From NCBI GenBank assembly GCA_965279515.1, contig CBDIID010000003.1:2761097-2825096 (forward strand): DNA of 64,000 nucleotides, in the 5' to 3' direction. Positions within the stretch are counted from its first letter, which is position 1. Each line of letters starts with the position of its first letter. Below are positions 20,129 to 56,291 of the stretch, one piece after another. Under the pieces are notes generated by a model. That model did no database searches. It was not told the origin of the DNA and saw only the letters and a list, made by a program, of their open reading frames with translations. The DNA is from Turneriella sp. (GTDB taxonomy: Bacteria > Spirochaetota > Leptospiria > Turneriellales > Turneriellaceae). The position numbers and the translations under genes were made by a program.

Positions 20129-21034
20129 ATGACAAAAGCAGAATTTCTCGCGAGCGAAACCGGCAAACAGTATACAGCGCAGATGCGCCTGACGGGATTA
20201 AGGCCTGTCACCATCAATAACTATGCCCGGCGCGTCAGCGCGGCAGCAAGGTTTTTGCGGAAGGAGCCCTCCAGCCTCAGTTCAAAAGACGCAGAAGAGT
20301 TCATCCAGAAGGCGGCGCTCGAGGGTAACTCGAACATTAACAGCATTATTACATGCGTGGCGCTGAAATTTTATGTGACGCGCATACTGAAGAAACCCTG
20401 GCACAGCTTTGCGTTACCGCGCGTCCATAAACACCGTAAGCGGCGCGCACGGCCGTTGACGCGCGACGAAATTCTCGCCATCATCGATCGCACGCAGGGT
20501 CGTCGGTACCGGCTGCTCTTCGCCCTGATCTATGGCAGCGGCCTGCGCGTGGGTGAAGCGTGCCGGCTGCGTCTCAGAGATCTGGATTTTCACAATCTGA
20601 AAATTTATATCCGGGATGGAAAGGGCGGCCGTCACCGTGAAACGGTACTTTCTTCCGCGCTGGCAAAGGAACTCATGCTTTATATTTCCGAAAGGCGCCC
20701 GATCCAATGGCTTTTCCCTTCGAACCGCCAGACTTACGCGGCGGAAACCCTCTTTCCTGTGGTAATCAGAACAAAGCCTATCTCTGTGCGTTCGGCCCAG
20801 CGTGAGTTTGAAATTGCCTCCAACCAACTGAATCTTTCAGGGCTGGTCACCATCCACTCGCTGAGGCACTCTTTCGCCACCCATCTCGTGGAATATAATA
20901 TGCCGCTGTTTTCTGTGCAGCGTTTGCTGGGCCACCAACACCTCAACACAACGCTGGGTTATTTGTCGTCGATGGGTCGGCCCGTGGTTGAAGATTTTAG
21001 CCCGCTAGACCGCTTGCGCATCGCGCACCTGTAA
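20129..21034 (+). CDS. Solitary tyrosine recombinase (N-terminal SAM-like domain; IntI/IS91-associated-like)
   Basis: YGSGLRVGE, GKGG, HSLRHSFATH, LLGH...TTLGY and C-terminal SPLD; the full R-K-H-R-H-Y catalytic set is present. Confidence 0.9.
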   Translation: MTKAEFLASETGKQYTAQMRLTGLRPVTINNYARRVSAAARFLRKEPSSLSSKDAEEFIQKAALEGNSNINSIITCVALKFYVTRILKKPWHSFALPRVHKHRKRRARPLTRDEILAIIDRTQGRRYRLLFALIYGSGLRVGEACRLRLRDLDFHNLKIYIRDGKGGRHRETVLSSALAKELMLYISERRPIQWLFPSNRQTYAAETLFPVVIRTKPISVRSAQREFEIASNQLNLSGLVTIHSLRHSFATHLVEYNMPLFSVQRLLGHQHLNTTLGYLSSMGRPVVEDFSPLDRLRIAHL

Positions 21035-42620: not shown

Positions 42621-43340
42621 ATGTTATCACCTTTCTGGGGCGAATTTCTGGGCACGATGGTGCTCATCATCTTAGGCAGCGGCGTTGTCGCGGGCGTGCT
42701 GCTTGAAAAATCGAAGGCGCAAAACGCCGGGTGGATTGTCATCACGGCGGGCTGGGCCTTTGCCGTCACGCTGGGGATTTTCACCGCGAAGACTTTCGGC
42801 AGTCCCGATGCGCACCTAAACCCGGCCGTAACGCTGGCCTTCGCGATCAAATCGGGCTCGTATGAAAACGTGCCCGTCTTCTTCGCCGCCCAGTTCGCGG
42901 GCGCTTTTGCGGGAGCTGTCATCACCTGGCTGCACTATTTACCGCACTGGGGCGAAACAAAAAACCCCGCACTAAAACTCGCGGTCTTCTCAACCGACCC
43001 GGCCATTCGCCATCCGGTGCACAACATGGTGAGCGAGATCATCGGCACATTGGTTCTCATCATCGGCGTCTACGTCATCTTCTCACGCGGCTCCGGCGGC
43101 ATCAGCGCAGGCATGGGCCCGTTTCTCGTCGGCATACTCGTCTGGGCAATCGGCCTCTCGATGGGCGGCACGACCGGCTACGCGATCAACCCCGCCCGCG
43201 ACCTCGGCCCACGCCTCGCGCATGCACTGCTGCCGATTGCTGGCAAGGGCTCATCGGACTGGCGCTATGCTTGGGTGCCAGTGGTCGCACCGCTGATTGG
43301 AGGGGGGATTGCGGGGGTGGTGTTGCGGTTGGTTTCGTAG
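42621..43340 (+). CDS. glpF: MIP channel, aquaglyceroporin (GlpF-like)
   Basis: Two NPA motifs (HLNPAVT, TGYAINPARDLGPR), EFLGT, six TM helices. Confidence 0.88.
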   Translation: MLSPFWGEFLGTMVLIILGSGVVAGVLLEKSKAQNAGWIVITAGWAFAVTLGIFTAKTFGSPDAHLNPAVTLAFAIKSGSYENVPVFFAAQFAGAFAGAVITWLHYLPHWGETKNPALKLAVFSTDPAIRHPVHNMVSEIIGTLVLIIGVYVIFSRGSGGISAGMGPFLVGILVWAIGLSMGGTTGYAINPARDLGPRLAHALLPIAGKGSSDWRYAWVPVVAPLIGGGIAGVVLRLVS

Positions 43341-43374
43341 AATAGGTGGAGTGTGACATGGGCAAAGAGTAATT

Positions 43375-44163
43375 ATGTACGCAAAATATTTTATCGCATT
43401 ATTGATTATCTTCTTAGGAAATTGCCGAGACCCCAAAGGCCAGATTGTTGAAGATTACTTAGATTCTACTCTGACGAGAGAAAGTACGATCAGAATGCAA
43501 GAGGTTTTTGTCGAAAAATTGCCACCGCAAATGCCGCGCTCAGTCAAGTTAAAACTCGGTGCCTTTGCACGCCGGATATGGGACTTTGAAACATACGCTG
43601 ATACATTAAAGCAAACCTCGATACCGCCGGAAGTCATAGCCGGCATGAAGTCGACTATAGATTTCAGTAAGACAGAAGCTGGCAGGTCGTACAAAAAATC
43701 CCTTAAGAATTATTTTGACAATGAGCGGCAGCTTTTAGGCCAGAAGAGAATCTCCGATTTCCCCGCCGCTCGAATCGACTTTTTTACGCAGCGCTTTTTT
43801 GCCAATAACGAGCCTGAAAACGGGGAACGGGTAAACCGCGACTTCAACTATCGTATGATGAAAATCTTTTGGATATTGAGCCATCCAAATAAACCCATTG
43901 ACGAGGCAGAAATCAAGGCAAAGTCTCAGATTATCATAAACGCTGAGCGTAACAAAATGCAGAAATCAATTATTCAGGGCAAAGTCCCAGATTCTATGCT
44001 TCTTCGCAGCTTGGTACAGACTATGCTCTTAACCGAGCAAGAATTTGAGGCGTACAAATCCTACCTTAATGCAACAGAGGCCATTTCTCTGAAAAAGTTC
44101 ATTTTTGACTTTGACCATACTCAGTCGCAAATCCGCATGGACAAATACATACAATCACTATAA
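43375..44163 (+). CDS. Cassette 1: hypothetical lipoprotein
   Basis: MYAKYFIALLIIFLGNC lipobox; helical. Confidence 0.7.
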   Translation: MYAKYFIALLIIFLGNCRDPKGQIVEDYLDSTLTRESTIRMQEVFVEKLPPQMPRSVKLKLGAFARRIWDFETYADTLKQTSIPPEVIAGMKSTIDFSKTEAGRSYKKSLKNYFDNERQLLGQKRISDFPAARIDFFTQRFFANNEPENGERVNRDFNYRMMKIFWILSHPNKPIDEAEIKAKSQIIINAERNKMQKSIIQGKVPDSMLLRSLVQTMLLTEQEFEAYKSYLNATEAISLKKFIFDFDHTQSQIRMDKYIQSL

Positions 44164-44175
44164 GTTGCCCACGTC

Positions 44176-44359
44176 ACACAACAAATTTTACGCGCTGCGC
44201 CGCTGCGGTGCAGTAGCTCCCCGCGTGCTCCCTAAGGGGAGATTCGCTTCGCGCGTCGCCGCGAGCCGCTACGACCACATTTTTTGACGCAAATCGGCTT
44301 TACAAAGTGAATAATGACACAAGCATCAAAAAACGTCATCGTAAAATCCAACGTTAGCT
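44176..44359 (+). repeat. attC-like element 1 (about 184 bp)
   Basis: ACACAAC-aaa-TTTTACG ... CGTAAAA-tccaac-GTTAGCT; internal stem TTTTTGACGC/GCATCAAAAA. Confidence 0.7.
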
Positions 44360-44372
44360 GCCATGGTGCATT

Positions 44373-45293
44373 ATGTCAGACCACTTAAATAAACTAATTA
44401 ACTCAGTTCACTTTCAATCGATCCTTAAAGAGCAGAGTGTTTTTAACGTAGTTAAACAGCATTTACCAGACACTCAAATGGGGACTTTTTATGTAGACCC
44501 TGATACGAGTAAGTACAGAGAAATTGATGTATTGGCTTTAAAGGAGAGCACAATAAATCAAAAATCTGAAGAAATTAGAGTAAGAACTATTATACCAATC
44601 GAGTGCAAGACGTTGAAAAATTTTAGTGTCTTTTTGTATAATGAGCAGCCTAAAGAAAAATCCAGGCCAAATACGGTTTGGCCTCTTGAAATTCTTCAAA
44701 CAACAATTTTTCAGAAGATTCACCGTGAATCACTGAGTCTAAAAGTCCAAAAACGGTTTGAGCTTGAGCATTCAAATACACGCCCGAAACTAACAGATCA
44801 GATAGATTTGGCCGCCAGTTTCGCTGAACCTGTCTTTCCTACTTATGCGAGTTTTAGGGAGATGAACCCAGCAAATGTGCGACGCAAGGATGATGATGGG
44901 AGCGTCGTTTGGGAAGCTAGCCAAAGTCTTCGGGCCTGCCAGATGTACTTCGTAAATGAGGTTATCAAGACCGCCGTTGAGGATTCGATTGAACAAATGG
45001 CAGGCTTTATTGATGAAGTTGACAAAGCTAGAGATGCAACTTATACACGCATACCGCTAATAAGACTTGATGCCATTAAAGCATTGCATAATAGATTTTA
45101 CTCAATTCATCCCATATTGGTGGTAGACGCTCAGCTTTTTACAATTGATGAGAATGAAAACCCTAAGGAGATTTCCGCAGGCAATTTGGCATTTTACGGC
45201 GTTGGCGGCTTCGCAAATTTTCAAATGACAGTCATGCGGTATTCGACCTTTCAAGAGTCAATCGCTGCTTTGATAAAAGGCATCTTGATCTGA
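44373..45293 (+). CDS. Cassette 2: PD-(D/E)xK restriction-endonuclease-fold protein
   Basis: YVDPDTSKYREIDVLA...IPIECK motif; low GC. Confidence 0.6.
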   Translation: MSDHLNKLINSVHFQSILKEQSVFNVVKQHLPDTQMGTFYVDPDTSKYREIDVLALKESTINQKSEEIRVRTIIPIECKTLKNFSVFLYNEQPKEKSRPNTVWPLEILQTTIFQKIHRESLSLKVQKRFELEHSNTRPKLTDQIDLAASFAEPVFPTYASFREMNPANVRRKDDDGSVVWEASQSLRACQMYFVNEVIKTAVEDSIEQMAGFIDEVDKARDATYTRIPLIRLDAIKALHNRFYSIHPILVVDAQLFTIDENENPKEISAGNLAFYGVGGFANFQMTVMRYSTFQESIAALIKGILI

Positions 45294-45305
45294 ATGCCCC
45301 ACGGC

Positions 45306-45602
45306 AGCTAACAAATTTTACGCGCTGCGCGCTGCGGTGCCGTAGTTCCTCTGAAAACAGAGACCCGAGGACAGGTCGCGTGTGCTCCCTCAGGGGAGAT
45401 TCGCTTCGCTCATCGCGGGTCTTCGCAGCAAAGATCGCGGACGACGCGCACACCGGGAGGTGTGTTTTCGCGCGGCGCTGCGTGACCTTTTAGGTCTTCG
45501 TCTTCGGTGCCGCTAGACCACATCTTTTGACGCGAATCGGCTTTACAAATTGATTAAATGGCACAGGCGTCAAAAAACGTCGGCGTTAGATCCAAGTTGT
45601 GT
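45306..45602 (+). repeat. attC-like element 2 (about 297 bp)
   Basis: AGCTAAC-aaattttacgcg ... gcgttaga-tccaa-GTTGTGT; shares blocks with elements 1 and 3. Confidence 0.7.
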
Positions 45603-45612
45603 TACCTTTACT

Positions 45613-46401
45613 ATGAAACCATTCTCAAAGCGCTATTTTCTACTTATAATACTTGGCCTAAATTCGATTACGTGTAATAATCATAAAATTGCAACGAAAG
45701 ATATACTTATTGTCGAAATCACTGATGCCGATCTCGGCCTGAAAATAACTGCTGAGCCGGAGTATCGGAGAATGATCCCCTTGTTCCGCACATCTCTGAC
45801 GAAGTTTCTAACGGATTTAGGACCGTTAGCTCGATATGTTCTAATTCATATGACCCTTAGTTCGCACGAAAAAAATGACATCGATCATAACTTGCGCGAC
45901 GCCATACAGAAGCTGCCCCGTAAGACTCTAATTTATGGCAACTTACTTAAACGAAAGATGACGCATAAGTTTTTTTCCTCCGCAGTCGCCGAAATGGGTC
46001 ACGTTGAATTTGCCGAAGCAGACGAAATGACATGGTTATTCTATCCGAGTATTTGTGACCGTGATAATGTAAACTCTGACAATGAGCCCGGCGATTGCCC
46101 TGAAAACAAAATCCGCAGAGATATTGCTTTGATCGCCGCTGAGGGGTATGCAGGTAAAAAAATTACGACAAAACTTGCTGATTCTATTGCCTACGAAAAA
46201 TGGAGATTAAAAGGGTTATCGCGAATTACCTATACGAAAGCAACGCAATCGCCCGAGCTCTTGAAGGACAAGCTCATCATAATAATCAATCAACCGACAC
46301 CTGACAGCGATATGCACGATCTAATGGGGGATTCAAAAATATCCGGTTCAGAAATTCTTGGGAATCGAGTTTTGTTTTACAATGAATTAGCTGCCCCGTA
46401 G
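45613..46401 (+). CDS. Cassette 3: hypothetical lipoprotein
   Basis: ATG 17 nt after GTT; MKPFSKRYFLLIILGLNSITC lipobox-like. Confidence 0.65.
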   Translation: MKPFSKRYFLLIILGLNSITCNNHKIATKDILIVEITDADLGLKITAEPEYRRMIPLFRTSLTKFLTDLGPLARYVLIHMTLSSHEKNDIDHNLRDAIQKLPRKTLIYGNLLKRKMTHKFFSSAVAEMGHVEFAEADEMTWLFYPSICDRDNVNSDNEPGDCPENKIRRDIALIAAEGYAGKKITTKLADSIAYEKWRLKGLSRITYTKATQSPELLKDKLIIIINQPTPDSDMHDLMGDSKISGSEILGNRVLFYNELAAP

Positions 46402-46409
46402 CAAACGGC

Positions 46410-46722
46410 GCACATCGAGGTTTGCGGGGCTACGCTCGCTGGGGCGCCATAGCTTGAAACCGCAAGGGCGATGGCGCGGGCTTCCTAAAGGGAGATTCGC
46501 TTCGCTCATCGCGGGGTCTCCGCGGCAAAGATCGCGGATGACGCGCACACCGGGAGGTGTGTTTTTGCGCGGCGCTCGTGACCTTTTAGGTCACTGAAGA
46601 CAGAGGCGAAGACGCCACCGTCTTCGGTGCTACGAGGGCACATTTTGTGTCGCGAATCGGCTTTACAGATTGATTAATTGGGGCAGGCGTCAACAAACGT
46701 CAGCGGAAAATCCACGTTGAGC
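46410..46722 (+). repeat. attC-like element 3 (about 313 bp)
   Basis: GCACATC (degenerate R'') ... gcggaaaa-tccac-GTTGAGC; about 67-bp block nearly identical to element 2. Confidence 0.65.
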
Positions 46723-46740
46723 TCTATCGCCAGGAGACGA

Positions 46741-47265
46741 ATGAAAAAGAAACATTACTCCTATTCATTATTGATTCTTGTCATTTTCTTTGGAGTATCC
46801 TGCCAGCCGCGACTAAAGCTGTTTATCATTCAGAATATGACCGAAAAACCTTTAGCTATTGAACTATTTATTCATCCCTTTGAGGACATGCCAGCCAAAC
46901 CGCCTGAAGATTTCCCCTTCGAAGTAACTTTCTTTAAGTCTGGCTATTTTGGAGAGCCGAGCATTGAGGAGAATGGTACGCGAATACCCTTAAAATCTTC
47001 TGCGATTAAGTTAGATACGAAAAGGCATTCGATTATTTTTTCCCTAAAGCCCAGGGCGGGATTAGAGATTTTTAAAATGACGTTTCACCAGTTTAAGGCT
47101 TTGGATGATAAAACTATTTCAAAGTTTCCTTTCAAATTACTTGCAATACAAACTCCAAGCAAGCAACTAGAAATTGCCATAACATCGAAAGGTTTAACTG
47201 AAAACTTCCAGAGACCGTTTTTTTCAATCTGGGATCATGAGCGAAATGAACTAATTGTCCAATAG
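46741..47265 (+). CDS. Cassette 4: hypothetical lipoprotein
   Basis: AGGAG RBS; MKKKHYSYSLLILVIFFGVSC lipobox. Confidence 0.7.
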   Translation: MKKKHYSYSLLILVIFFGVSCQPRLKLFIIQNMTEKPLAIELFIHPFEDMPAKPPEDFPFEVTFFKSGYFGEPSIEENGTRIPLKSSAIKLDTKRHSIIFSLKPRAGLEIFKMTFHQFKALDDKTISKFPFKLLAIQTPSKQLEIAITSKGLTENFQRPFFSIWDHERNELIVQ

Positions 47266-47350
47266 GCAACGGCTCACAGCAAGAATTACCTGCGGTGCGG
47301 TAGCTGCCCTACAGACATAGACCCGAAGACGGGTCGCGCTTTGCGCGTCG
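47265..47350 (+). repeat. Truncated/degenerate attC-like element 4 (5' part only)
   Basis: ggcaacggctcacag...ctgcggtgcggtagc...agacccgaagacgggtcgcg resembles the 5' part of element 2; the 3' conserved block is absent. Confidence 0.5.
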
Positions 47351-47557
47351 CGGCCCTGGCAGCAGCAAGCGGTATACTTCTTTTGTGCACAACCCTCGGC
47401 GGATATCCGAAAGCGAGTTACAGAGAGGCGCCAGGAGTATATTAACTGCCGCAAGATCCCGCTACAGGCTAAAAAGTCGAACAAGGCGTCATTCAACGGT
47501 AAATAAAATTCACGCCGCCGGCCCTCCAACAGCAAAAATATTTCGTCTAAGTAGAGT

Positions 47558-47949
47558 ATGAGCATCTATCGAAGATACATGCTGGATGAATCCTGGGGCG
47601 ATGAGCCCGAAATCAAGGCGCAGAAAAGTCTCGTCGCCGCACTCCGAAAAACACTGCTCACCCCTGCCGACGTTAAGAGCGCCCTCAAGAAGGGCATAAA
47701 TCCCATTGATTCATCCATAGAGAAATGGTCTCGCATTCAAGCGGTTTTGGCCGAAGCGAAGCGAATTGAAACATTGGCTGCTTTAGAAACCTTCATCGGC
47801 GCCAAGACCTGCGCGCTCTGTATCAGATTGTACAAAATGCCCGGCATGCACCCCAGCTCTATGCCGAAGATGAGGAGATATTTGAGCAAATAAAACAGCT
47901 GGCTCTTCAGATGGTGAATTTACTGAAATCAATTCCTCAGAATAGCTGA
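47558..47949 (+). pseudogene. Probably frameshifted small Cys-motif protein
   Basis: KTCALCI in frame 1, DCTKCP in frame 2 and LYAEDEEIFEQIKQLALQMVNLLKSIPQNS* in frame 3, all within about 130 bp. Confidence 0.4.
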
Positions 47950-48027
47950 GGGGTTATCTAAATAAAACGCCTTCACACTTAAACAGAAGATCAAAGCTTG
48001 CTCCGAAACCTTCTTTGGTTAACTAAG

Positions 48028-49062
48028 CTACGGTCGTCGCACGGGACGGAAACCGATGCTGGAGAACGCCTGATACGGGGAAATCGCGTTGATGCGGCTC
48101 GAGGTGCGTACAATGCCGGAACCGGGATCGTTCCAGCTACCGCTACGCCTGATACGAAGCGGGCCGGTTGCTGGGCCTATGCTATCCGCATCCGTGTAAG
48201 GTGAGGCGGTTGTATACGAGCCATTCCAGTCCCAAACCCATTCATAAACGTTGCCACTCATATGATAGAGGCCCAAAGCATTGGGTGCTTTGGTGTCTAC
48301 CGGGTGTGTTGTTGTGGTATTGCCTGTAGTGCCATTAACGATGTTGCCGAACCAAGCTACGAAATCTGTTGCGGCAAAGTCAGAAACGTCGGCTGTTGCC
48401 CCGCTCGCATAGTTGCCCGGAGTGAATGCGGTGCCGTTAATATAACGTGCCGCATATTCCCACTCCACTTCGGTGGGCAACCGATAACCATTCGCCGACC
48501 AGTTGACGAAAGGAAAATCTATGCTGCCACTCCCCGGTGTGCCCAGAATCGAGAAGGTAGCCGACGAGGTTTTCTGCACGACCGAAAAACCAGCGTCACT
48601 GTAATACACAGGGGTCAGTCCATCTTTTTGCGATGCCGCGTTGCACCAGAGGATGCTATCCCGCCAACTAACAGCCGTCACCGGGTGCTGGTCGGTGCGC
48701 GCTCCGTTGTCACCCGGAATGCCTGGGTTGGCGAAAGTGTACCCGTTATTCGTGGCCCAAGCCTTCACCGTTACCCAGTCGCTGTATTGCACCTCATATT
48801 TCGCGATGGCGAACGCGGTGATCGAGGGAACCGTGTGCGTCAGTTCAATACCAGTATCGTCCATAACGAAACCGGTAGTATTCGCTGGCACGCGTACCAT
48901 CAGCAGGCTACAAGAGGCCATACTTATGGTGCAACTGCTTGAAATGTCGGTCGAGTCCCAGAATTTACCCCAACTCGTGCAGGAGTGGCTCATCCCTGTT
49001 GCTATGCAAAGAAAAAACACGCCGATATAAGATATTTTTCCGGATAGCATTTCCGTAAACAT
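48028..49062 (-). CDS. Lipoprotein with formylglycine-generating-enzyme (SUMF1/FGE-sulfatase) domain
   Basis: FAIAKYEV, HPVTAVSWRDSILWCN, YRLPTEVEWEYAAR, PNALGLYHMSGNVYEWVWD, IGFRPVR; start uncertain. Confidence 0.85.
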   Translation of the reverse strand: MFTEMLSGKISYIGVFFLCIATGMSHSCTSWGKFWDSTDISSSCTISMASCSLLMVRVPANTTGFVMDDTGIELTHTVPSITAFAIAKYEVQYSDWVTVKAWATNNGYTFANPGIPGDNGARTDQHPVTAVSWRDSILWCNAASQKDGLTPVYYSDAGFSVVQKTSSATFSILGTPGSGSIDFPFVNWSANGYRLPTEVEWEYAARYINGTAFTPGNYASGATADVSDFAATDFVAWFGNIVNGTTGNTTTTHPVDTKAPNALGLYHMSGNVYEWVWDWNGSYTTASPYTDADSIGPATGPLRIRRSGSWNDPGSGIVRTSSRINAISPYQAFSSIGFRPVRRP

Positions 49063-49226
49063 ATCAGAATTTTGCCCTTTGTCGACCGGAATGATCATTC
49101 AAGACCAATTTTTTTGCTTTATTCAGGGCGAGTCTCTGACTTCAGGGGCGCGGCATTAAAAATTTGTTTCATTTACGCCATGTACTTTTTATTAACTTTA
49201 TTCGGGAAAATTGTTAAGAATCAAAA

Positions 49227-50147
49227 ATGGCTATGCTTAAAGATAAAATTCTGCAGAAAAAAAGAGGCTTGATATTTTATGGGTTAACACCTCCAAAAAT
49301 AAATACCGAACCTCAACGCATAGTTGAAATTGCCCATAAGCAGGTTGAAAGGCTTCAAGACATCGATATAGACGGGTTGATATTGTATGATATCCAGGAT
49401 GAATCTGCACGAACGGATGCGCCGCGACCATTTCCATATATACCTACAGTTGCACCGGATAATTACAGCGAAATATACCTGAAAGAATTGAATGTTGCTA
49501 AAATAATTTATAAAAGTGTCGGTAAATATTCAGCACAGGACTTTAAGACGTGGATAAGTGCTAAAAACCACGAAATAGAATGTGCCGTATTTGTCGGTAG
49601 CCCGTCTAAAAGTCATTTGCCGGCGTTAGCATTACATGACGCCTATAAACTCAAGCGGGAAGTAAATTCACCCATCGTGCTGGGCGGAGTTGCAATCCCG
49701 GAACGGCATCTGATTAAGAACGATGAACATTTGAGAATGTTTAACAAGATAGATGAGGGCTGTTCTTTTTTCATTTCGCAATGCGTGTATAATATGGATA
49801 ATGCTAAAAATCTTTTATCGGATTATTATTATACCGGCGTAGATACGGGTAAACCATTAGTGCCGATCATATTTACATTAACTCCATGTGGTTCACTCAA
49901 AACGCTGGAATTCATGAAATGGCTGGGCATAGATATGCCGCATTGGCTAAATAATGAATTAAAACATTCTGAGAATATTCTACAGAAGTCGCTGGATATT
50001 TGCAGGAAAATAGCTGTGGAGTTGCTGGAATTCAGCGCCGGTAAAAATATACCTGTAGGCTTTAATGTAGAAAGTGTTGCCATCAGAAAAGAAGAGATAG
50101 AAGCCTCTATACATTTGCTGAAAGATGTGAAAGAATTCATGAAATAA
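49227..50147 (+). CDS. Methylenetetrahydrofolate-reductase-like FAD-linked oxidoreductase
   Basis: YGLTPPK, YDIQDES...RPFP, LGGVAIPERH, GCSFFISQCVY, FMKWLG; low GC. Confidence 0.65.
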   Translation: MAMLKDKILQKKRGLIFYGLTPPKINTEPQRIVEIAHKQVERLQDIDIDGLILYDIQDESARTDAPRPFPYIPTVAPDNYSEIYLKELNVAKIIYKSVGKYSAQDFKTWISAKNHEIECAVFVGSPSKSHLPALALHDAYKLKREVNSPIVLGGVAIPERHLIKNDEHLRMFNKIDEGCSFFISQCVYNMDNAKNLLSDYYYTGVDTGKPLVPIIFTLTPCGSLKTLEFMKWLGIDMPHWLNNELKHSENILQKSLDICRKIAVELLEFSAGKNIPVGFNVESVAIRKEEIEASIHLLKDVKEFMK

Positions 50148-50338
50148 GATACAGAAGCTGGCAAAGGCACGACATGGTCATTTTTCAAAGCTTTTTACCG
50201 CGGATTCCCCCGGCCATCCCCCGCCTTACGCACCAGAATCTGCATTTTTTCGTAACGTAACTGTCACAAACCCAAATTCAGGCGATATCACCTTTAACGG
50301 CGGGAACCCTGAGTTCTCCGCTGGTTAAGGAGAAATAA

Positions 50339-50662
50339 ATGTATATTCAATTGGCCCCAGGAAAAGTAAAAGCGGGTGTGGACGAGACTAAGATTCTTAA
50401 AGCATCCGACGAATTTGATTCCCAGTTCGTTGCCCGGCAGCCGGGCATCGTCAAGCGCATACTCTTGAAAGGAAAAGACGGCACTTACGCAGATTTGGTC
50501 TTCTTTGAAAGCAAAGAGGCCGCGGATCGGGTCGCACAGGCTGAACAGGCCGGCCATCCGGCATGCGCGAACTTTTTCCAATTGTTTGAGATGGACGAAA
50601 CAAAGCCAGATATGGGTGTCCTCAGTTTTCAGGAAATCAAGGCATACGGTAAGCAGATATAA
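50339..50662 (+). CDS. Small hypothetical protein (Dabb/ABM-like dimeric alpha-beta barrel)
   Basis: AAGGAG RBS; FVARQPGIVKRILL...YADLVFFES...A pattern. Confidence 0.6.
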   Translation: MYIQLAPGKVKAGVDETKILKASDEFDSQFVARQPGIVKRILLKGKDGTYADLVFFESKEAADRVAQAEQAGHPACANFFQLFEMDETKPDMGVLSFQEIKAYGKQI

Positions 50663-50671
50663 GGTCTGACT

Positions 50672-51556
50672 ATGATTTTTTTAAGCAACAACGCACAGAG
50701 AAAAACTGAGCATGATTGGGCTGACCTCGTGCGTAAGAGCCTCGCGGGAAACCGCGAGGTGCTGGATCATCTTCTCGCATCATTGCAGCCTTATATTTTC
50801 AATCTCGCCCAAAAAATGCTGCTGAACCCGGATGATGCCGCAGACATTACCCAGGAAGTACTGCTTAAAGTCATCCTGGGTCTCCAGACCTATGCGCCCG
50901 AGAAAGCCGAATTTACAACCTGGGCCTATGCCATAGCGCGGAATCAGCTTCTGAAATTCCGCAAAGGAAAAATCGAGGCCTTGACCGGTTCCTTCGACGA
51001 GTTTGCTGAAGAAATTTATGCCGTCGCCGATGAGGTCATCGAGGCGCGGGAGTTTCAGAATCCGGAGACCCAACTCTTGGTAAAGGAAGCCAATGTCGGC
51101 TGCATGCTGGGGATGTTGTTGTGCCTGACACGCGAGCAGCGCTTAGTCTTCATTCTCGGCGAAATTCTTGCCCTCAAATCGGACGTAGCTGGTGAAATTT
51201 GCGGAGTCAGTTCTGAGAATTACAGGCAGCAGCTTTCCCGTGCAAGGCGCGATCTTTACTCATTCATGCAGAACAAATGCGGACTTGTCAACAAGGCGAA
51301 CTCCTGTCGCTGCCACCGAAAAACGCGAGGCTTCGTTAAGGCAGGATATGTTGACCCGCAAAACATCCGCTTTGCCACGCCACACTATGAAAACGCGAGA
51401 ATTTTTTCAGAAGAGCATGCGGCCGCGATGTGCGATCTGGATAATGAGTATGGGCAAATGTTCCGCAACTTGCCCGCATATGATGCCGGGCACACGCTGC
51501 TCACGGTTGAGAGTCTTTTGCGTTCAGAAGAATTTAAAGGGACCTTCGGCATTTAA
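50672..51556 (+). CDS. ECF sigma factor with Cys-rich C-terminal extension
   Basis: Region 2 DAADITQEVLLKV...FTTWAYAIARN; region 4 LTREQRLVFIL...LSRARR; extension CGLVNKANSCRCH. Confidence 0.9.
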   Translation: MIFLSNNAQRKTEHDWADLVRKSLAGNREVLDHLLASLQPYIFNLAQKMLLNPDDAADITQEVLLKVILGLQTYAPEKAEFTTWAYAIARNQLLKFRKGKIEALTGSFDEFAEEIYAVADEVIEAREFQNPETQLLVKEANVGCMLGMLLCLTREQRLVFILGEILALKSDVAGEICGVSSENYRQQLSRARRDLYSFMQNKCGLVNKANSCRCHRKTRGFVKAGYVDPQNIRFATPHYENARIFSEEHAAAMCDLDNEYGQMFRNLPAYDAGHTLLTVESLLRSEEFKGTFGI

Positions 51557-51696
51557 GATACCACTACTCAACCCATAAAACATGGAGTGTCTCCGGACAG
51601 GTCGGTTTTTTTATGGCATGGCATGTGTGCGGCGAGCGTATTTTAAAGGCGGCGGAAAAATCGGGGTTCCGGTCTTTTTGCACTTTAAGGAATCAA

Positions 51697-52170
51697 ATGT
51701 TACACCTGTTCTGCGGAAAAATCGCATCCGGTAAATCGACGATGGCAAAAGAAATTGCCTCGAAGGAAGGCGCGATAATTATCAGCCAGGATGAATGGAT
51801 GGCCACCTTATTTCCCGGAGAAATTAAATCCATTGAAGATTTTGCCCATGCCCTGGGAAAGTTGCGAAAGGTCATGGGCCCGCACATCGTCATGTTATTG
51901 AAACGGGGACAAACGGTAGTGCTCGACTTTCATGCAAATACGCTAAATGCGCGCCATTGGATGAAATCCATCTTTGAAGAAGCCGGCGCTGACCATACCC
52001 TGCATTACATGAAAACGCCGGACGATATCTGCAGAACAAGACTCAATCAAAGGAATGCCAAAGGTGATCATGAATATCAGGTTAGCCAGGATGATTTTGA
52101 TGCCTTTGCCCTGCATTTTTTGGCGCCATCAGCGGAAGAAGGTTTCAAGATAAAGATGTATAGGGTTTGA
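51697..52170 (+). CDS. AAA_33-like predicted P-loop kinase/ATPase
   Basis: CGKIASGKST, SQDEWM, VVLDF; RBS AAGGA. Confidence 0.85.
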   Translation: MLHLFCGKIASGKSTMAKEIASKEGAIIISQDEWMATLFPGEIKSIEDFAHALGKLRKVMGPHIVMLLKRGQTVVLDFHANTLNARHWMKSIFEEAGADHTLHYMKTPDDICRTRLNQRNAKGDHEYQVSQDDFDAFALHFLAPSAEEGFKIKMYRV

Positions 52171-52512
52171 CTTTTTTGCCGTTTTCTTTGGGATATTATA
52201 AATCACGGGGCGACGGCGGCTGGGCAGACCCGGAAAGAGGATGCCTCGCGACAAACCGGCGGCGAAGTCACCCGACTTTCAAGATCGATGATTTGGGATT
52301 TCGCCTGGCGAGATCGCTCTGAAAGCATCGACTGGATGACGGTCGCTGGGCGCGTCACCGCAGCGACCCGAAACTTTTTTTGGCATTATCCTGAGCCGCA
52401 CGGCGTACATGCCTGAAGGATCAATGCCCGCTTTCCCTGCCTCAAACCGCGAAACGCTGCCAAATCCTACCCATCAGCCCCGAGTTCACTGTAAGGAGTT
52501 TTCTCATTTCGC

Positions 52513-53868
52513 ATGGAATCGATCAGAAATTTCGACGCCGGTCGAACACTTACCTACATCGGCATTTTAGAAGGCTTAACCAATGACATGAATTCGGCCA
52601 TCCTGGCCGCTACTGGGCGGGGTCAAAGTTTGCCGCCCGAGATCTTCGAAATTGCAACACGCTGCAAGTCAATGCAGCAGCTTTCGGCTGACCTGCAGGA
52701 AGACCTGGTGACCCTTCTGGACGTTCATGACCAGAAAACGCGCCAGGCGGAGGAACTCGAAATTCTCGTACGCGAAAGGACACAAAAACTCGAAGAGAGC
52801 TTCGCGCAGACGCTGCGGCTGAAAGAAGTCCAGGATGCTGATTATTTTCTTATCTCCCTGTTGCTGAAACCTCTGCTAAAACATGAATTGCAAAGTGAAC
52901 ATTTCCGGGTTTATTTTGACATCGAGCAGTATAAGAAAATTTTCTTCAAGAACCGTTATGCGGAGATCGGCGGCGATATCTGCGCTGCGCAGGAAATATG
53001 GCTCGGGGATCAACGCTACTGCCTGCTCATGAACGCCGACGCCATGGGCAAGTCGATGCAAGGTGCCGCAGGTTCACTGATACTTTCTGCCGTCCTGCGA
53101 ACCCTCATATCACGGCCCACGGTTTCGGGGTTGAGGGGACAGTTTCCCGAACATTGGCTTATCAGCACATTCATCGACCTGCACAGGATATTCGAGTGCT
53201 TCGAGTATAGCATGATGGCTTCAATGTTCATCGGACTGTTGCATGAAGCAACGGGGATTCTCTATTTCATCAACGCGGAGCATCCATATCCCATCCTTTA
53301 CCGCAATGGCGCTGCGTCTTTTGTCGAAAGTGCCGCACTAAATAAGATCGGCGCTTTTATCGATCTGGAAAATATTCACGTTAACATACTGGCATTGGAG
53401 GCGCACGATATTCTATTCGTCGGTTCGGATGGAAAAGACGATTTGATTATCGGCGAACACCACGAAGGCAGCCGAATCTTTAACGAGGACGAAACCAGAA
53501 TTCTTCGCCACATTGAAGCAGGCAAGGGTGACGGAGAAAAGGTGCGCGCTGAAATCATAGACGCGGGCAAACTTGCCGATGATTATTCTTTGTTACGCCT
53601 GCAAATTCTGGACACAGCCGTGACCGCGAACTGGAAAAAGCCGCGGCCCAACCGGGGGTCGCGAATGGAATTTTGCCGGCAAATTCGCGCCGGCGATTAT
53701 CATGCGGCACTGGAATCTGCGCTAAGAGCAATGCACGAAGATCCGTTAGATGAGGAAGTTGTAATCGCCTTTGCGAAAACAAATGAGAAGTTATCGAATT
53801 TCGACGCCGCACGGGTTGCACATGAAAGACTGTTATACAGGGGGAAATCCCCAAAAAAAGCAATCTAA
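52513..53868 (+). CDS. PP2C/SpoIIE (RsbU-like) phosphatase with coiled-coil and C-terminal helical tail
   Basis: EIGGDIC, NADAMGKS, INAEHP, GSDG, DDYSLL. Confidence 0.85.
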   Translation: MESIRNFDAGRTLTYIGILEGLTNDMNSAILAATGRGQSLPPEIFEIATRCKSMQQLSADLQEDLVTLLDVHDQKTRQAEELEILVRERTQKLEESFAQTLRLKEVQDADYFLISLLLKPLLKHELQSEHFRVYFDIEQYKKIFFKNRYAEIGGDICAAQEIWLGDQRYCLLMNADAMGKSMQGAAGSLILSAVLRTLISRPTVSGLRGQFPEHWLISTFIDLHRIFECFEYSMMASMFIGLLHEATGILYFINAEHPYPILYRNGAASFVESAALNKIGAFIDLENIHVNILALEAHDILFVGSDGKDDLIIGEHHEGSRIFNEDETRILRHIEAGKGDGEKVRAEIIDAGKLADDYSLLRLQILDTAVTANWKKPRPNRGSRMEFCRQIRAGDYHAALESALRAMHEDPLDEEVVIAFAKTNEKLSNFDAARVAHERLLYRGKSPKKAI

Positions 53869-55289
53869 TAAACCGCAATGCCCTGGGCATTCGTGGCTGA
53901 TTGCAGATTAATTTGGGTTAGGGCACCGGTTTGCTGGTCAATGGTGTAAGAACCCACCTGATTTGTCGTCGAACCATAGCTAATAACCGCAAAACGACCG
54001 CTGGCCTCGATCGCGATAAATGTCGGAAAATTCGCCACACTCAACGTTTGTACCGTGGTCGGGAAACCCGTCGAAGCGTTAATGCTGAATACGGAAATCG
54101 AGGGGCCGCTTGTGTTCACAATATAAACAAAGCGGCCCGTGGGATCGACAGCGGCGCCTTGGGGATTCGAACCGACGGAAACTGTGCCTAACAGCGTCAG
54201 CAGGCCGGTGGATGCATTGATGGAGTAGTAGGACATCGTTTGCGGAGTATTGTTTGCAGAATACAGATAATTACCACTGGGCTCGATGACCGGCGTTAGC
54301 GGACTCGCACCGCCTGCGGAAACCTGTCCGGCCAGGCCCGTCAGGCTTCCGCTAGTCTGATTTACCTGTGCGACATAGATTTGGTTATCCCCACTCGAAG
54401 AAACATAAACGTATTTACCATTCGGATGAATACCGATGCCCGACGGAGCGCTACCTGAAAGCGCAAGATTGGCAGCGCTGAGCGGCGCTCCCGTGCTCAT
54501 ATTGATTGAGTATTGCGTAACGGTTGAATTATTAGCGGCGCCATAAAGCACCGAAAGGGTTGGGTGATAGACAAACCCCCGGTTGAAGGTCACATCGGCA
54601 TAGGTTGATCCGGTACTGGGCACACCCGTGGACTGGTTGATGCTGGAATAATTCAACGAAGTGCCGGAATTGGTACTCGAGACCAGGACTTTTCCATTAG
54701 GGTCCATCGCAACGGGTATTGTCAGCGACCCATTGGGCACCGTTAGGAACGTACTCACATTGCCCGTTGTCTGATTCAAGGTAGCGTATGAGAGGTTGGC
54801 CGAGGTAAAATTTCCCGTAAACACCCACTTACCAATATCCTTAGTCGTGTACGTGGTACTCGTGTATTCGCTGCCCAGTGCCACGCCTTGATAACTCCTG
54901 AGCCCCGTCGTAATGCGCACCTTATAGGTAGTAAGCGGTTTCAGGAAAGGTAAAGGGACTATGTTTAATCGAGTGCCGTCATTCGACAGGGTGGGCGTTT
55001 TAAGCGAAAGGCACGATGCAAAATTATCCAATGAAACCTGCACTGATCCCAAACAAAACGTGCTGCCGATGCTGGTATTTGCTGAAATCGATGCCGTATC
55101 AATGGCGACAGTGAAATCGACTGTAAATGGGCCGGAGACAGGAAAATTAGCCACGGCGCCTGCGCCGGAGTTCAAAGGCTCAAAACGCAGCTCCCAGAAT
55201 CTGCTCCATGAAGAGCATCTGCCAAACCATAAAATAAGAAATACCAGCGGCATACGAACCCAAGCGCTTGTTTTATTACCGATAACCAT
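53865..55289 (-). CDS. Lipoprotein: Ig-like (Big_5-like) domain plus lactonase-type beta-propeller
   Basis: FGRC lipobox; LKPLTTYKVRITTGL Ig strand; repeated P-x-G...Y-V...YSINxSTG blades. Confidence 0.75.
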   Translation of the reverse strand: MVIGNKTSAWVRMPLVFLILWFGRCSSWSRFWELRFEPLNSGAGAVANFPVSGPFTVDFTVAIDTASISANTSIGSTFCLGSVQVSLDNFASCLSLKTPTLSNDGTRLNIVPLPFLKPLTTYKVRITTGLRSYQGVALGSEYTSTTYTTKDIGKWVFTGNFTSANLSYATLNQTTGNVSTFLTVPNGSLTIPVAMDPNGKVLVSSTNSGTSLNYSSINQSTGVPSTGSTYADVTFNRGFVYHPTLSVLYGAANNSTVTQYSINMSTGAPLSAANLALSGSAPSGIGIHPNGKYVYVSSSGDNQIYVAQVNQTSGSLTGLAGQVSAGGASPLTPVIEPSGNYLYSANNTPQTMSYYSINASTGLLTLLGTVSVGSNPQGAAVDPTGRFVYIVNTSGPSISVFSINASTGFPTTVQTLSVANFPTFIAIEASGRFAVISYGSTTNQVGSYTIDQQTGALTQINLQSATNAQGIAVY

Positions 55290-55477
55290 ATTGCGGCCGC
55301 CACGTTTGCTAACTCATGCCGGTATGCAACCAAAATACCCAGACTTTTTCTGAAAAAATGAAAAACTTAGGGACTGCTGGCAAGGTGGCTTAATTGCCTG
55401 GCTGTCACCTAACCATGCTTGCATGATTCGAATGCGAATTTCGCAGGCATGATGTTACCCAGTAGGCGCTTTATCTT

Positions 55478-56053
55478 TTATTTCTTAGTGACAGTCCACT
55501 TGAAATTCGTCGTCTTTACGTCTTTCCAAGAAGCAGTTAAAGATGAGCCCTGTGAAACGCAGGTTGTACCGTTACCAACATACGTGGGGGTAAGCAGAAC
55601 GAAGCCAGCAGCAGCAGCGGTATATGTATATGTCTTAGGCGTATTAACATCTAACCCACTCAATGCTAAAGCCGGAGTACCGTAAATTCCGTAATCATAG
55701 ATTCCCGATGTGTTGCTAACTGTATCATTGAGAGAACCCGGCGTGGGCTGACCAATTAACCTGAGCTGAAGTGTAGCTGAAATAGCGCTATTTCCGCATT
55801 TACCTTCCAGTTTGCCCGCGGCCATTACAAATTCATAGGTACCGGCCGCGGGGATGGCAATCTTCGCCTGACAATTATCATAGCAAGAGCCACAAATTTC
55901 GCCCGTGCTGGCAGTTTGTTCGTAAATCACTTTGTTGCCCGACATCAGGCAGGCCGGGCCTTTATCTTCAGCTTCCGTTGTTTTTGCGCATGCCCCCAGA
56001 AACAAGATGGCAAGCATACTCAAGATGAGAGGATTATTGGGGATTTTTTTCAT
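55478..56053 (-). CDS. Hypothetical Cys-containing lipoprotein
   Basis: LFLGAC lipobox; six further Cys including CGSCYDNC. Confidence 0.65.
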   Translation of the reverse strand: MKKIPNNPLILSMLAILFLGACAKTTEAEDKGPACLMSGNKVIYEQTASTGEICGSCYDNCQAKIAIPAAGTYEFVMAAGKLEGKCGNSAISATLQLRLIGQPTPGSLNDTVSNTSGIYDYGIYGTPALALSGLDVNTPKTYTYTAAAAGFVLLTPTYVGNGTTCVSQGSSLTASWKDVKTTNFKWTVTKK

Positions 56054-56291
56054 GCATCTCATTAGAAATTATCCAACAATTGGTCAATGATATTGTTAGT
56101 CAAAATCTGACACTGTTAAAAATCCAACTACTCACCGGAAGTGTCCCGGGGAATTTGGGCTTAAATATACCTCTACGCGGGATTTAGTATCAGCGTTTAC
56201 GATAAGATGGGTATTCCGTCTCCATTAGCCTGCCGCGCGCTGAAACGACTCTGTCATTGACGCCCAACTTAAATCACGGGAGCTATCCGCA

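Follow-up and report, generated by a model that had tools for sequence, protein, structure and literature searches.

Integron-like gene cassettes in Turneriella and a candidate cassette recombinase without the IntI-specific domain

Introduction

The 64,000-nt stretch of Turneriella sp. DNA considered here, referred to below as the window, corresponds to C3:2761097-2825096 in a genome of 4.9 Mb with 53 % G+C. Downstream of the aquaglyceroporin gene glpF, it carries four co-oriented units, each made of one open reading frame (ORF) and a long structured repeat. We consider it likely (probability about 0.8) that these units are gene cassettes, that they belong to an integron-like system of site-specific recombination in the genus Turneriella, and that the recombinase of this system is most likely a 366-aa enzyme whose gene sits 120 kb outside the window. 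This reading is carried by the anatomy of the cassettes, the position of the crossover, the pairing constraints on the sites, the turnover of cassettes between species and the adjacency of recombinase genes and arrays in relatives. At the cassette, site and array levels the system works like an integron; at the enzyme level it fails the test by which IntI is defined. The window array itself is a real integron-like array at a secondary attI-like site, most likely served in trans.

Each cassette comprises one ORF and a long attC-like site of ~215-240 nt (up to ~320 nt in the window). The site consists of an outer R stem of ~18 bp ending in AAC and GTT, an asymmetric unpaired spacer (AA vs CCAC), an inner L stem of ~10 bp and a branched middle. 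Recombination crosses over at or beside G/TT (a slash in or before GTT marks the junction), so that the 5' end of an arrayed cassette carries an R-stem half able to pair with the 3' end of the same cassette.

Pairing of cassette ends and position of the crossover

Copies of the repeat were collected over the whole genome by blastn and by iterated nhmmer searches with the spacer modules. About 110 5' boxes and 85 3' modules were found. Nearly all copies lie in two big co-oriented arrays, array 1 at C3:90.8-170 kb (~80 kb, ~60 units) and array 2 at C3:3734-3805 kb (~70 kb, ~40 units), with a few small satellites, the window array among them. The repeats flank ORFs in more than 100 instances outside the window, contrary to a refuting condition of the original prediction, repeats not generally flanking single ORFs elsewhere.

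The original prediction, made from the letters of the window, held that the 5' end of each unit is complementary to its own 3' flank and not to that of its neighbour. This was examined with 98 cassettes of the two big arrays, by comparing the 17 nt after GTT with the 17 nt before AAC. Pairing with the 3' end of the same cassette gave a mean of 12.2/17, whereas in-situ pairing, with the 5' box of the same site (that of the upstream neighbour), gave 7.0/17, the level of random pairs (7.1/17, standard deviation 2.6). Own pairing exceeded in-situ pairing for 79 cassettes, equalled it for 5 and was lower for 14 (Wilcoxon p = 1.9e-13, n = 98). The rule thus holds far beyond chance elsewhere in the genome. 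High own pairing with in-situ pairing at the random level places the crossover at or beside GTT.

Traces of mobility have the same boundaries. Cassette A2_23 recurs with 100 % identity within unit A2_9, where its neighbours are different. The identity starts exactly at the 5' GTT, upstream of which the sequences correspond to two different kinds of site; it covers the cargo and the entire attC-like site and stops at the next GTTGTC. Moreover, A1_33 and A2_24 are 100 % identical for 810 nt starting at the 5' GTT, up to an internal ...TTTTCCAC/GTT, and diverge past this junction. No whole-cassette duplicates were found at more than 80 % mutual coverage; the copies embedded in composite units came from an analysis at partial coverage. 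The own-own pairing and the GTT-bounded duplicate agree with the G/TT crossover of integrons and favour the earlier proposal that the units once were circles recombining at G/TT.

Two apparent traces of excision among Logan contigs were rejected. Run X4, which comes from another sample, has no contig for cassette 2, but this does not indicate excision, as the depth is ~5x and other parts drop out as well. Putative 'joints' with sides of 20-30 nt and high depth derive from other copies of the repeat.

Anatomy of the attC-like sites

In cassette orientation, the sites read ~15 variable nt, AAC, the spacer AA, L'' (for example ATTTTACGCGCTG or AATTTACCTGCTG), a conserved branched middle, L' (CAGCGTAAAAT or CAGGTAAATT), CCAC, GTT and again ~15 variable nt. 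Sites of the big arrays are uniform, with a median AAC-to-GTT distance of 202 nt and a whole length of ~215-240 nt. AAC and GTT are invariant (0.99-1.00 across sites), and the spacer AA is opposed to CCAC or CCGC in 86 of 101 sites. The sites show the palindromic organization of integron attC (R''-L''...L'-R', AAC and GTT, unpaired spacer, variable middle), at a length of 215-340 nt that exceeds the usual range. The attC length commonly cited is 55-141 nt.

Both stems bear marks of pairing. In the L stem, the three nucleotides after TTAC and before GTAA covary (CTG with CAG, 40; ACG with CGT, 8; CCG with CGG, 5; AAG with CTT, 3; GAG with CTC, 2), and so do the three nucleotides on the other side (AAT with ATT, 51; ATT with AAT, 38; GAT with ATC, 5; GTT with AAC, 3). 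In the R stem, complementarity per position is 0.73-0.93 at positions 4-18, except position 11, and falls to background beyond 18. No complementarity is ever found at position 11, where A in the 3' box faces C in the 5' box, so that the top strand has an A.C mismatch and the bottom strand a G.T wobble. When the two halves of the same cassette are joined again into a circle-form site, this folds more stably than the chimeric sites found in situ. The bottom strand is the more stable one in 95 of the 98 cassettes (-72.0 vs -67.5 kcal/mol, DNA parameters). By analogy with integrons, the folded bottom strand would be the substrate; its stability and the asymmetry at position 11 are compatible with bottom-strand recombination, although they are not proof of it. 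The sites also contain GC-rich hairpins followed by T runs. The idea that every site carries a promoter was dropped because a sigma-70 scan of the 3' module gave no consistent promoter.

Both big arrays begin with attI-like heads, CAGCTAATAGAC/GTT and CAGATAATAGAC/GTT. In this genome the ends of the arrays have no integrase; they are bordered by MlaD/ABC genes, a P450 gene and a transposase gene of the IS481 family.

Two other repeated elements occur within these arrays. An insertion sequence (IS) of the IS481 family, ~1335 nt long and encoding a 426-aa rve transposase, lies at C3:89395-90842 and in at least 7 more copies inside the arrays; the copies are 98-100 % identical and the end reads GGTACTATCACGACATAGGTAACAC. 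In seven cassettes it occupies the same spot, 19-20 nt past GTT, at the outer end of the R stem, and one copy truncates the last site of array 1. This IS appears to target the recombination sites. In its fixed insertion position it resembles the attC-targeting IS1111-attC group and the group IIC-attC introns, but the element belongs to the IS481 family and is neither an IS110/IS1111 element nor an intron. Besides, a recurrent unit of ~400 nt, starting with GTTAGCCACCATTACCTCC and ending with ...GGGTATTTTCCAC/GTT, is present in more than 10 copies that are 95-100 % identical, for instance as the first ~400 nt of A2_9, A2_30 and A1_13. It resembles a small cassette whose attC-like site would belong to a second, shorter class, missed by the regular expressions used.

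The array downstream of glpF

The features of the window array are as follows; ORF coordinates, and those of glpF, are from the ORF list.

42621-43340, plus strand: glpF (aquaglyceroporin), a conserved gene of the chromosome, with the insertion point in its 3' flank
43341-43350, plus strand: attI-like secondary attachment site or junction, AATAGGTG/GA, with GTT mutated to GGA, recognized by its likeness to attI cores
43348-44352, plus strand: cassette 1, with a 5' R' remnant at 43348-65; own-own pairing 15/18
43375-44163, plus strand: ORF1, 262 aa, orphan, lipoprotein-like N-terminus
44165-44355, plus strand: attC-like site 1, ~191 nt, from alignment; the single-stranded DNA fold pairs the outer boxes
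44353-45595, plus strand: cassette 2, 5' end GTTAGCTGCCATGGTGCATT; own-own pairing 18/20
44373-45293, plus strand: ORF2, 306 aa, orphan
45293-45598, plus strand: attC-like site 2, ~306 nt, from alignment and fold; a canonical site with ~100 nt of extra GC-rich hairpins in its middle
45596-46715, plus strand: cassette 3, 5' end GTTGTGTTACC; own-own pairing 11/17, marginal
45613-46401, plus strand: ORF3, 262 aa, lipoprotein-like N-terminus, sub-threshold CHASE2 match (Pfam)
46400-46718, plus strand: attC-like site 3, ~319 nt; 5' box degenerate (AAC to ATC), 3' module intact and ending CCAC/GTT
46716-47263, plus strand: cassette 4, 5' end GTTGAGCTCTATCGCC; own-own pairing 9/17, not significant
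46741-47265, plus strand: ORF4, 174 aa, orphan, lipoprotein-like N-terminus
47264-47515, plus strand: attC-like site 4, degenerate; AAC to AGC in R'', middle rearranged, GTT gone

The glpF stop codon ends at 43340 and reading of the sequence confirmed that the array begins 7 nt further, with GGA in place of GTT. The four co-oriented, AT-richer orphan ORFs span 43375-47265, with GC-rich structured repeats (190-320 nt) between them; these spacers have three conserved modules in common, as found by repeat search and alignment. The ORFs start 27, 20, 17 and 25 nt past GTT or GGA (units 1 to 4), within the 17-27 nt first reported.

The inverted matches described for the first two units were reproduced by sequence reading and repeat search: GTTAGCTGCCATGGTGCATT (44353-72) pairs with AATGCCCCACGGCAGCTAAC (45293-312) at 18/20 in unit 2, and GGAGTGTGACATGGGCAA (43348-65) with TTGCCCACGTCACACAAC (44165-82) at 15/18 in unit 1. 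For unit 3, the 11/17 match was found again, at 46400-16, but it is only marginal, 74 of 2000 shuffles being equal or better. The partial self-complementarity claimed for unit 4 did not stand, since 9/17 is the chance level.

Site 1 reads R'' TTGCCCACGTCACACAAC, the spacer AA, L'' ATTTTACGCG, a branched middle, L' CGTAAAAT, the spacer CCAAC and GTT, and its modules score 51.9 and 63.7 with nhmmer. Alignment shows that sites 2 and 3 are the usual site of the genome with additional hairpins inserted; a 63-nt block of site 2 (45417-79) is also present in site 3 (repeat search). In site 3, the fold has z = -4.4, the 3' module scores 74.5 bits and the 5' module has no nhmmer match. As to site 4, the array does not simply end in a truncated repeat, as had been thought: the last repeat is a degenerate full site that keeps a remnant of the 3' module (AGGCGTCATTCAACGGTAAATAAAATTCACG) at ~47484-47514.

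None of the four ORFs has a Pfam or PADLOC family, the sub-threshold CHASE2 match of ORF3 being the sole trace, and an Rfam scan of the array region gave no known RNA family. Lipoprotein-like signal sequences, read from the translations, begin three of the four ORFs. The window array holds four attC-like sites in 4.2 kb, and no tyrosine recombinase gene is closer than 22 kb, which bears out the earlier statement that no integrase adjoins the array; it can be classed as a cluster of attC sites lacking integron integrases (CALIN). It is partly fossilized, with a GGA junction and degenerate sites 3 and 4; it has decayed since insertion, and probably no more than part of it is still mobile. Directly 3' of the fourth site lies a 111-aa orphan ORF (window 47558-47893), which may be a fifth, wholly fossilized cassette.

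The glpF locus across species

The original prediction offered two alternatives for the window array, insertion at a secondary site or a distinct spirochaete cassette system acting in trans, and both appear to hold together. On the first, the sequence after glpF, TAGAATAGGT/G, resembles the attI core CAG(C/A)TAATAGAC/GTT that heads the big arrays. The resemblance of AATAGGT/G to the attI core AATAGAC/G thus fits insertion at a secondary site. On the second, a candidate Turneriella recombinase is encoded 120 kb away. The window array would have arisen by insertion into the attI-like sequence past glpF, followed by decay, and the change of GTT to GGA at the junction should block further exchange there.

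Comparison of the locus between species contradicts another refuting condition of the original prediction, an unchanged gene order with no presence/absence differences. Orthologues of glpF are 71-90 % identical in 8 congeners. In the closest relative, G001 (GlpF 90 % identical), the same junction is found (tagaataggtGTT...), with aataggtGTTGTGTG at the place of the attI-like site, and the cargo is different. There, the first cassette encodes a 177-aa ORF, its ends GTTGTGTGAAAGCTCGCGC and GCGCGAGCCATCACACAAC pair together, and a degenerate second cassette comes next. In the five other congeners checked, sequences diverge right past the glpF stop and no repeats are found there. A conserved cupin gene lies 13 kb from glpF in the genome studied here, as against 3.4 kb in G001 and 0.7 kb in G002. 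The entire glpF-cupin interval (window ~43341-56290) varies between species.

Recombinases and their arrays in relatives

The genome encodes only four tyrosine recombinases:

C3:4832285-4833220: XerD (TIGR02225, 349 bits, above cut-off)
C3:1401103-1402014: XerC-like recombinase (XerC match below cut-off)
window 20129-21034, plus strand: 301-aa IntI/XerA-like recombinase (IntI, TIGR02249, 149 bits, under the cut-off of 265)
C3:2926093-2927193, minus strand: 366-aa recombinase (XerA 196, XerC 170, IntI 161 bits)

No TIGR02249 match above 265 bits exists in this genome or among 20 genomes of the family. The best TIGR02249 scores of this genome, 149-161 bits, are split into two pieces that skip profile positions ~180-240. 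Across the phylum, this search detects full-length IntI in 41 of 401 genomes, none of them in this class. The 366-aa enzyme consists of an Xer/IntI catalytic core with an extra N-terminal part of ~95 aa. Its residues 101-271 and 295-366 align with VchIntIA (2a3v), and the part between them has 23 aa, as against 64 in IntI. Aligned with three spirochaete IntIs, the enzyme is seen to lack the LPxALxxKYPxAxxxWxWQ block. The C-terminal QSPL, on the other hand, is common with IntI and not with XerC or XerD. Since the IntI-specific insertion is absent, single-strand, structure-specific recombination cannot be assumed by homology.

As the 366-aa gene lies apart from the arrays here, the link between enzyme and arrays rests on relatives. 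In these, an orthologue heads an array and is divergent from it, as read in sequence for G002, G005 and G011 and from coordinates for G007 and G003, and the attI-like site beside the recombinase gene reads AATAGAC/GTT. An integrase gene next to attI and divergent from a co-oriented array is thus found in relatives, and neither at the window nor elsewhere in the genome studied. In G002, the recombinase gene is at C1:1372415-1373515 (plus strand). The attI-like sequence ...CAGGGAATAAAC/GTTGTCGGCC (core ..GGAATAAAC/GTT) lies ~170 nt upstream, and ~50 sites follow on the opposite strand down to 1322.5 kb. In G005, the attI-like sequence is ...CAGGGAATAGAC/GTTGGGCGC, with the core ..GGAATAGAC/GTT, 3' of a toxin-antitoxin-like pair. 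In G011, AATARACGTT is found ~160 nt from the recombinase gene. Of the 232 5' boxes of this genome, 227 are co-oriented past attI, nearly all in one array reaching ~3661 kb (~205 kb); G002 has 53 such boxes and shuffled controls have 0. The first cassettes beside attI also follow the own-own rule (G002, G005). Overall, arrays of relatives comprise 50 to more than 200 cassettes, with toxin-antitoxin cassettes among them.

Some features near these array heads deserve mention. The pair in G005 (L016:4739-5304) is placed between the recombinase gene and attI; its two small genes encode 107 and 82 aa, and it is by their sizes and overlap that they resemble a toxin-antitoxin module. In G011, the first four cassettes on the attI side (C1:3456712-3458108; L018:5713-7109) are tandem copies with a spacing of exactly 459 nt, and their 5' box AACAGATTTTACAAGCTGCG has ~15 further occurrences along the array. 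Immediately upstream of the start codon of the 366-aa gene, a direct repeat ATAGAACA-N3-ATAGAACA is present in all five genomes compared (L019:5195-5262 in the genome studied; L015, L016, L017 and L018). It may be bound by a regulator or serve the recombinase as an accessory binding site, in the manner of DR1/DR2 of attI1. In the genome studied, the gene keeps these upstream repeats but has lost attI and the array.

Homologues of the recombinase have an N-terminal extension too; they score ~190-221 bits with XerA and, split into two pieces, 167-205 bits with TIGR02249. Two distant homologues were looked at, P0067 (34 % identical; 1.07 Mb contig L048) and P0051 (400 kb contig L049). Each is transcribed divergently from a co-oriented array of orphan and toxin-antitoxin genes; between these genes, sites of 120-140 nt carry the same boxes (R'' AAAACGGCGCACAAC; R' GTTATACGCCATTTT or GTTGTACGAAAT). 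In the P0067 contig, read in sequence, the own-own rule and the A/G difference at position 11 hold; for the P0051 contig, reading covered the repeat boxes.

Weighing of alternative explanations

Long, structured and abundant intergenic repeats might be miniature inverted-repeat transposable elements (MITE) or repetitive extragenic palindromes (REP), or products of tandem duplication, with no cassette mobility. Neither the same-copy terminal repeats nor the orientation-independent insertion of such elements is seen: ends of the same copy pair at the random level and ends of the same cassette do not, which for practical purposes excludes this origin. Moreover, all copies within an array are co-oriented, cargo ORFs are unrelated and a cassette-exact duplication is observed. 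We therefore give this explanation almost no credit. It is also very improbable that the array is the remnant of an ordinary integron, a CALIN whose canonical IntI was lost or sits on an unsequenced replicon, the Xer-like recombinase being a bystander. AAC and GTT, the R and L boxes, the orphan ORFs and the toxin-antitoxin cassettes of relatives all match integrons, and CALINs without intI are common (PMC4889954). However, the TIGR02249 search that detects IntI elsewhere in the phylum yields none above cut-off in the family, in at least five genomes the arrays have a non-IntI recombinase on their attI side, and the 100 % identical cassette copies point to recent activity. Slightly less remote, but still unlikely, is that another tyrosine recombinase moves the cassettes, either the 301-aa enzyme or the host XerC/XerD, as for dif-hijacking elements. 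The best family match of the 301-aa enzyme is IntI, its C-terminus reads SPLD, its gene lies 22 kb from the window array, and XerC and XerD are present in the genome. This gene, however, never adjoins an array. It is 22 kb from glpF in G002 as well, remote from the array of that genome, and it is undetected in G013 (99 % complete) and G005, both of which carry arrays and the 366-aa type. The 301-aa enzyme was thus set aside as an unlikely cassette recombinase. The Xer proteins have no link to the arrays, and arrays at several loci, each with an attI-like head, are not suggestive of dif as used by integrative mobile elements exploiting Xer (IMEX).

The most serious competitor accepts the elements and the recombinase as proposed and supposes a classical double-strand exchange on the L'-spacer-R' side, the palindromy having some other function, for instance as a transcription terminator or mRNA stabilizer. 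We regard it as doubtful, with a chance that is small and yet not negligible. In its favour, the 366-aa enzyme has no IntI insertion, which one study ties to the single-strand pathway (PMC4792948), and the sites hold GC-rich hairpins and T runs. Yet R stems vary between cassettes while staying complementary over 18 nt, and L stems covary. This implies selection on the pairing of halves ~200 nt apart, for which a double-strand core would have no need. The conserved strand asymmetry, the bottom strand being the more stable in nearly all cassettes, also speaks against it.

Several observations weigh against the proposal that the units are cassettes of an integron-like system served by the 366-aa enzyme. 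Excised circles were not observed, in Logan contigs only ~5x deep. The junction of the window array is mutated (GGA), two of its sites are degenerate, and units 3 and 4 are without significant own-own pairing. As for the enzyme, it is devoid of the domain that binds extrahelical bases in IntI, and its gene adjoins no array in the genome studied. The 366-aa enzyme is most likely the cassette recombinase, and it would act in trans on the window array from 120 kb away.

Relation to known integrons and Xer recombinases

The closest likeness is to sedentary chromosomal integrons, such as the Vibrio cholerae superintegron and that of Treponema denticola, and to CALINs (Cury et al., 2016, PMC4889954). 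Common features are attI, a recombinase gene divergent from a co-oriented array, single-ORF cassettes in tens to hundreds, mostly orphan and each ending in an imperfect palindrome, a G/TT crossover and integrase-less satellite arrays. The differences lie in the enzyme and in the sites. The Turneriella integrase lacks the IntI insertion (161 bits in two pieces vs 265) and has ~95 additional N-terminal aa. The sites are 215-340 nt long with an R stem of ~18 bp rather than 7, and their asymmetry comes from the A.C/G.T pair at position 11 and from a spacer of 2 vs 4 nt, not from extrahelical G and T. XerA and Xer-type enzymes (NF040815; PDB 4a8e, 5hxy) give the best core matches of the 366-aa enzyme (XerA 196 bits; 4a8e, E = 5e-33) and are as long as this enzyme in the segment that bears the insertion in IntI. 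Xer enzymes, however, resolve chromosome dimers at a single dif, are not associated with attI or arrays and have neither the N-terminal extension nor the IntI-like C-terminal QSPL.

Implications

The extra domain of IntI is held necessary for recombination of folded single-stranded attC (Messier and Roy, 2001, as cited in PMC4889954; PMC4792948) and is tied to the single-strand pathway (Escudero et al., PMC4792948). Genome surveys call integrons by this domain. Turneriella has a natural system with all the cassette-level hallmarks of integrons, yet its candidate recombinase is without the defining domain. We lean, with some reserve, towards a second integron class, in which tyrosine recombinases with an Xer/IntI core, a long N-terminal extension and no IntI-specific domain would shuffle arrays via folded sites of 120-340 nt (18-bp R stem, invariant A.C/G.T). 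It would include Turneriella (arrays up to ~205 kb, more than 200 cassettes) and at least two unrelated uncultured lineages, and would represent either a pre-insertion relative of IntI or an independent invention. Our search found no literature linking Turneriella or its relatives to integrons, which is not proof of absence.

Taken alone, the window yields a modest result, a small satellite array in decay whose four cassettes carry orphan genes, three of which look lipoprotein-like. Standard tools relying on intI_Cterm would leave the integrase of such a class uncalled. The default attC size limit of standard tools would probably miss the Turneriella sites. If the system is confirmed, cassette recombination would work, or would once have worked, without the IntI domain, and the transition from Xer to IntI would become directly testable. 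Integron-like elements would then be undercounted by current surveys, and very large unannotated cassette reservoirs would exist, with more than 200 cassettes in one relative.

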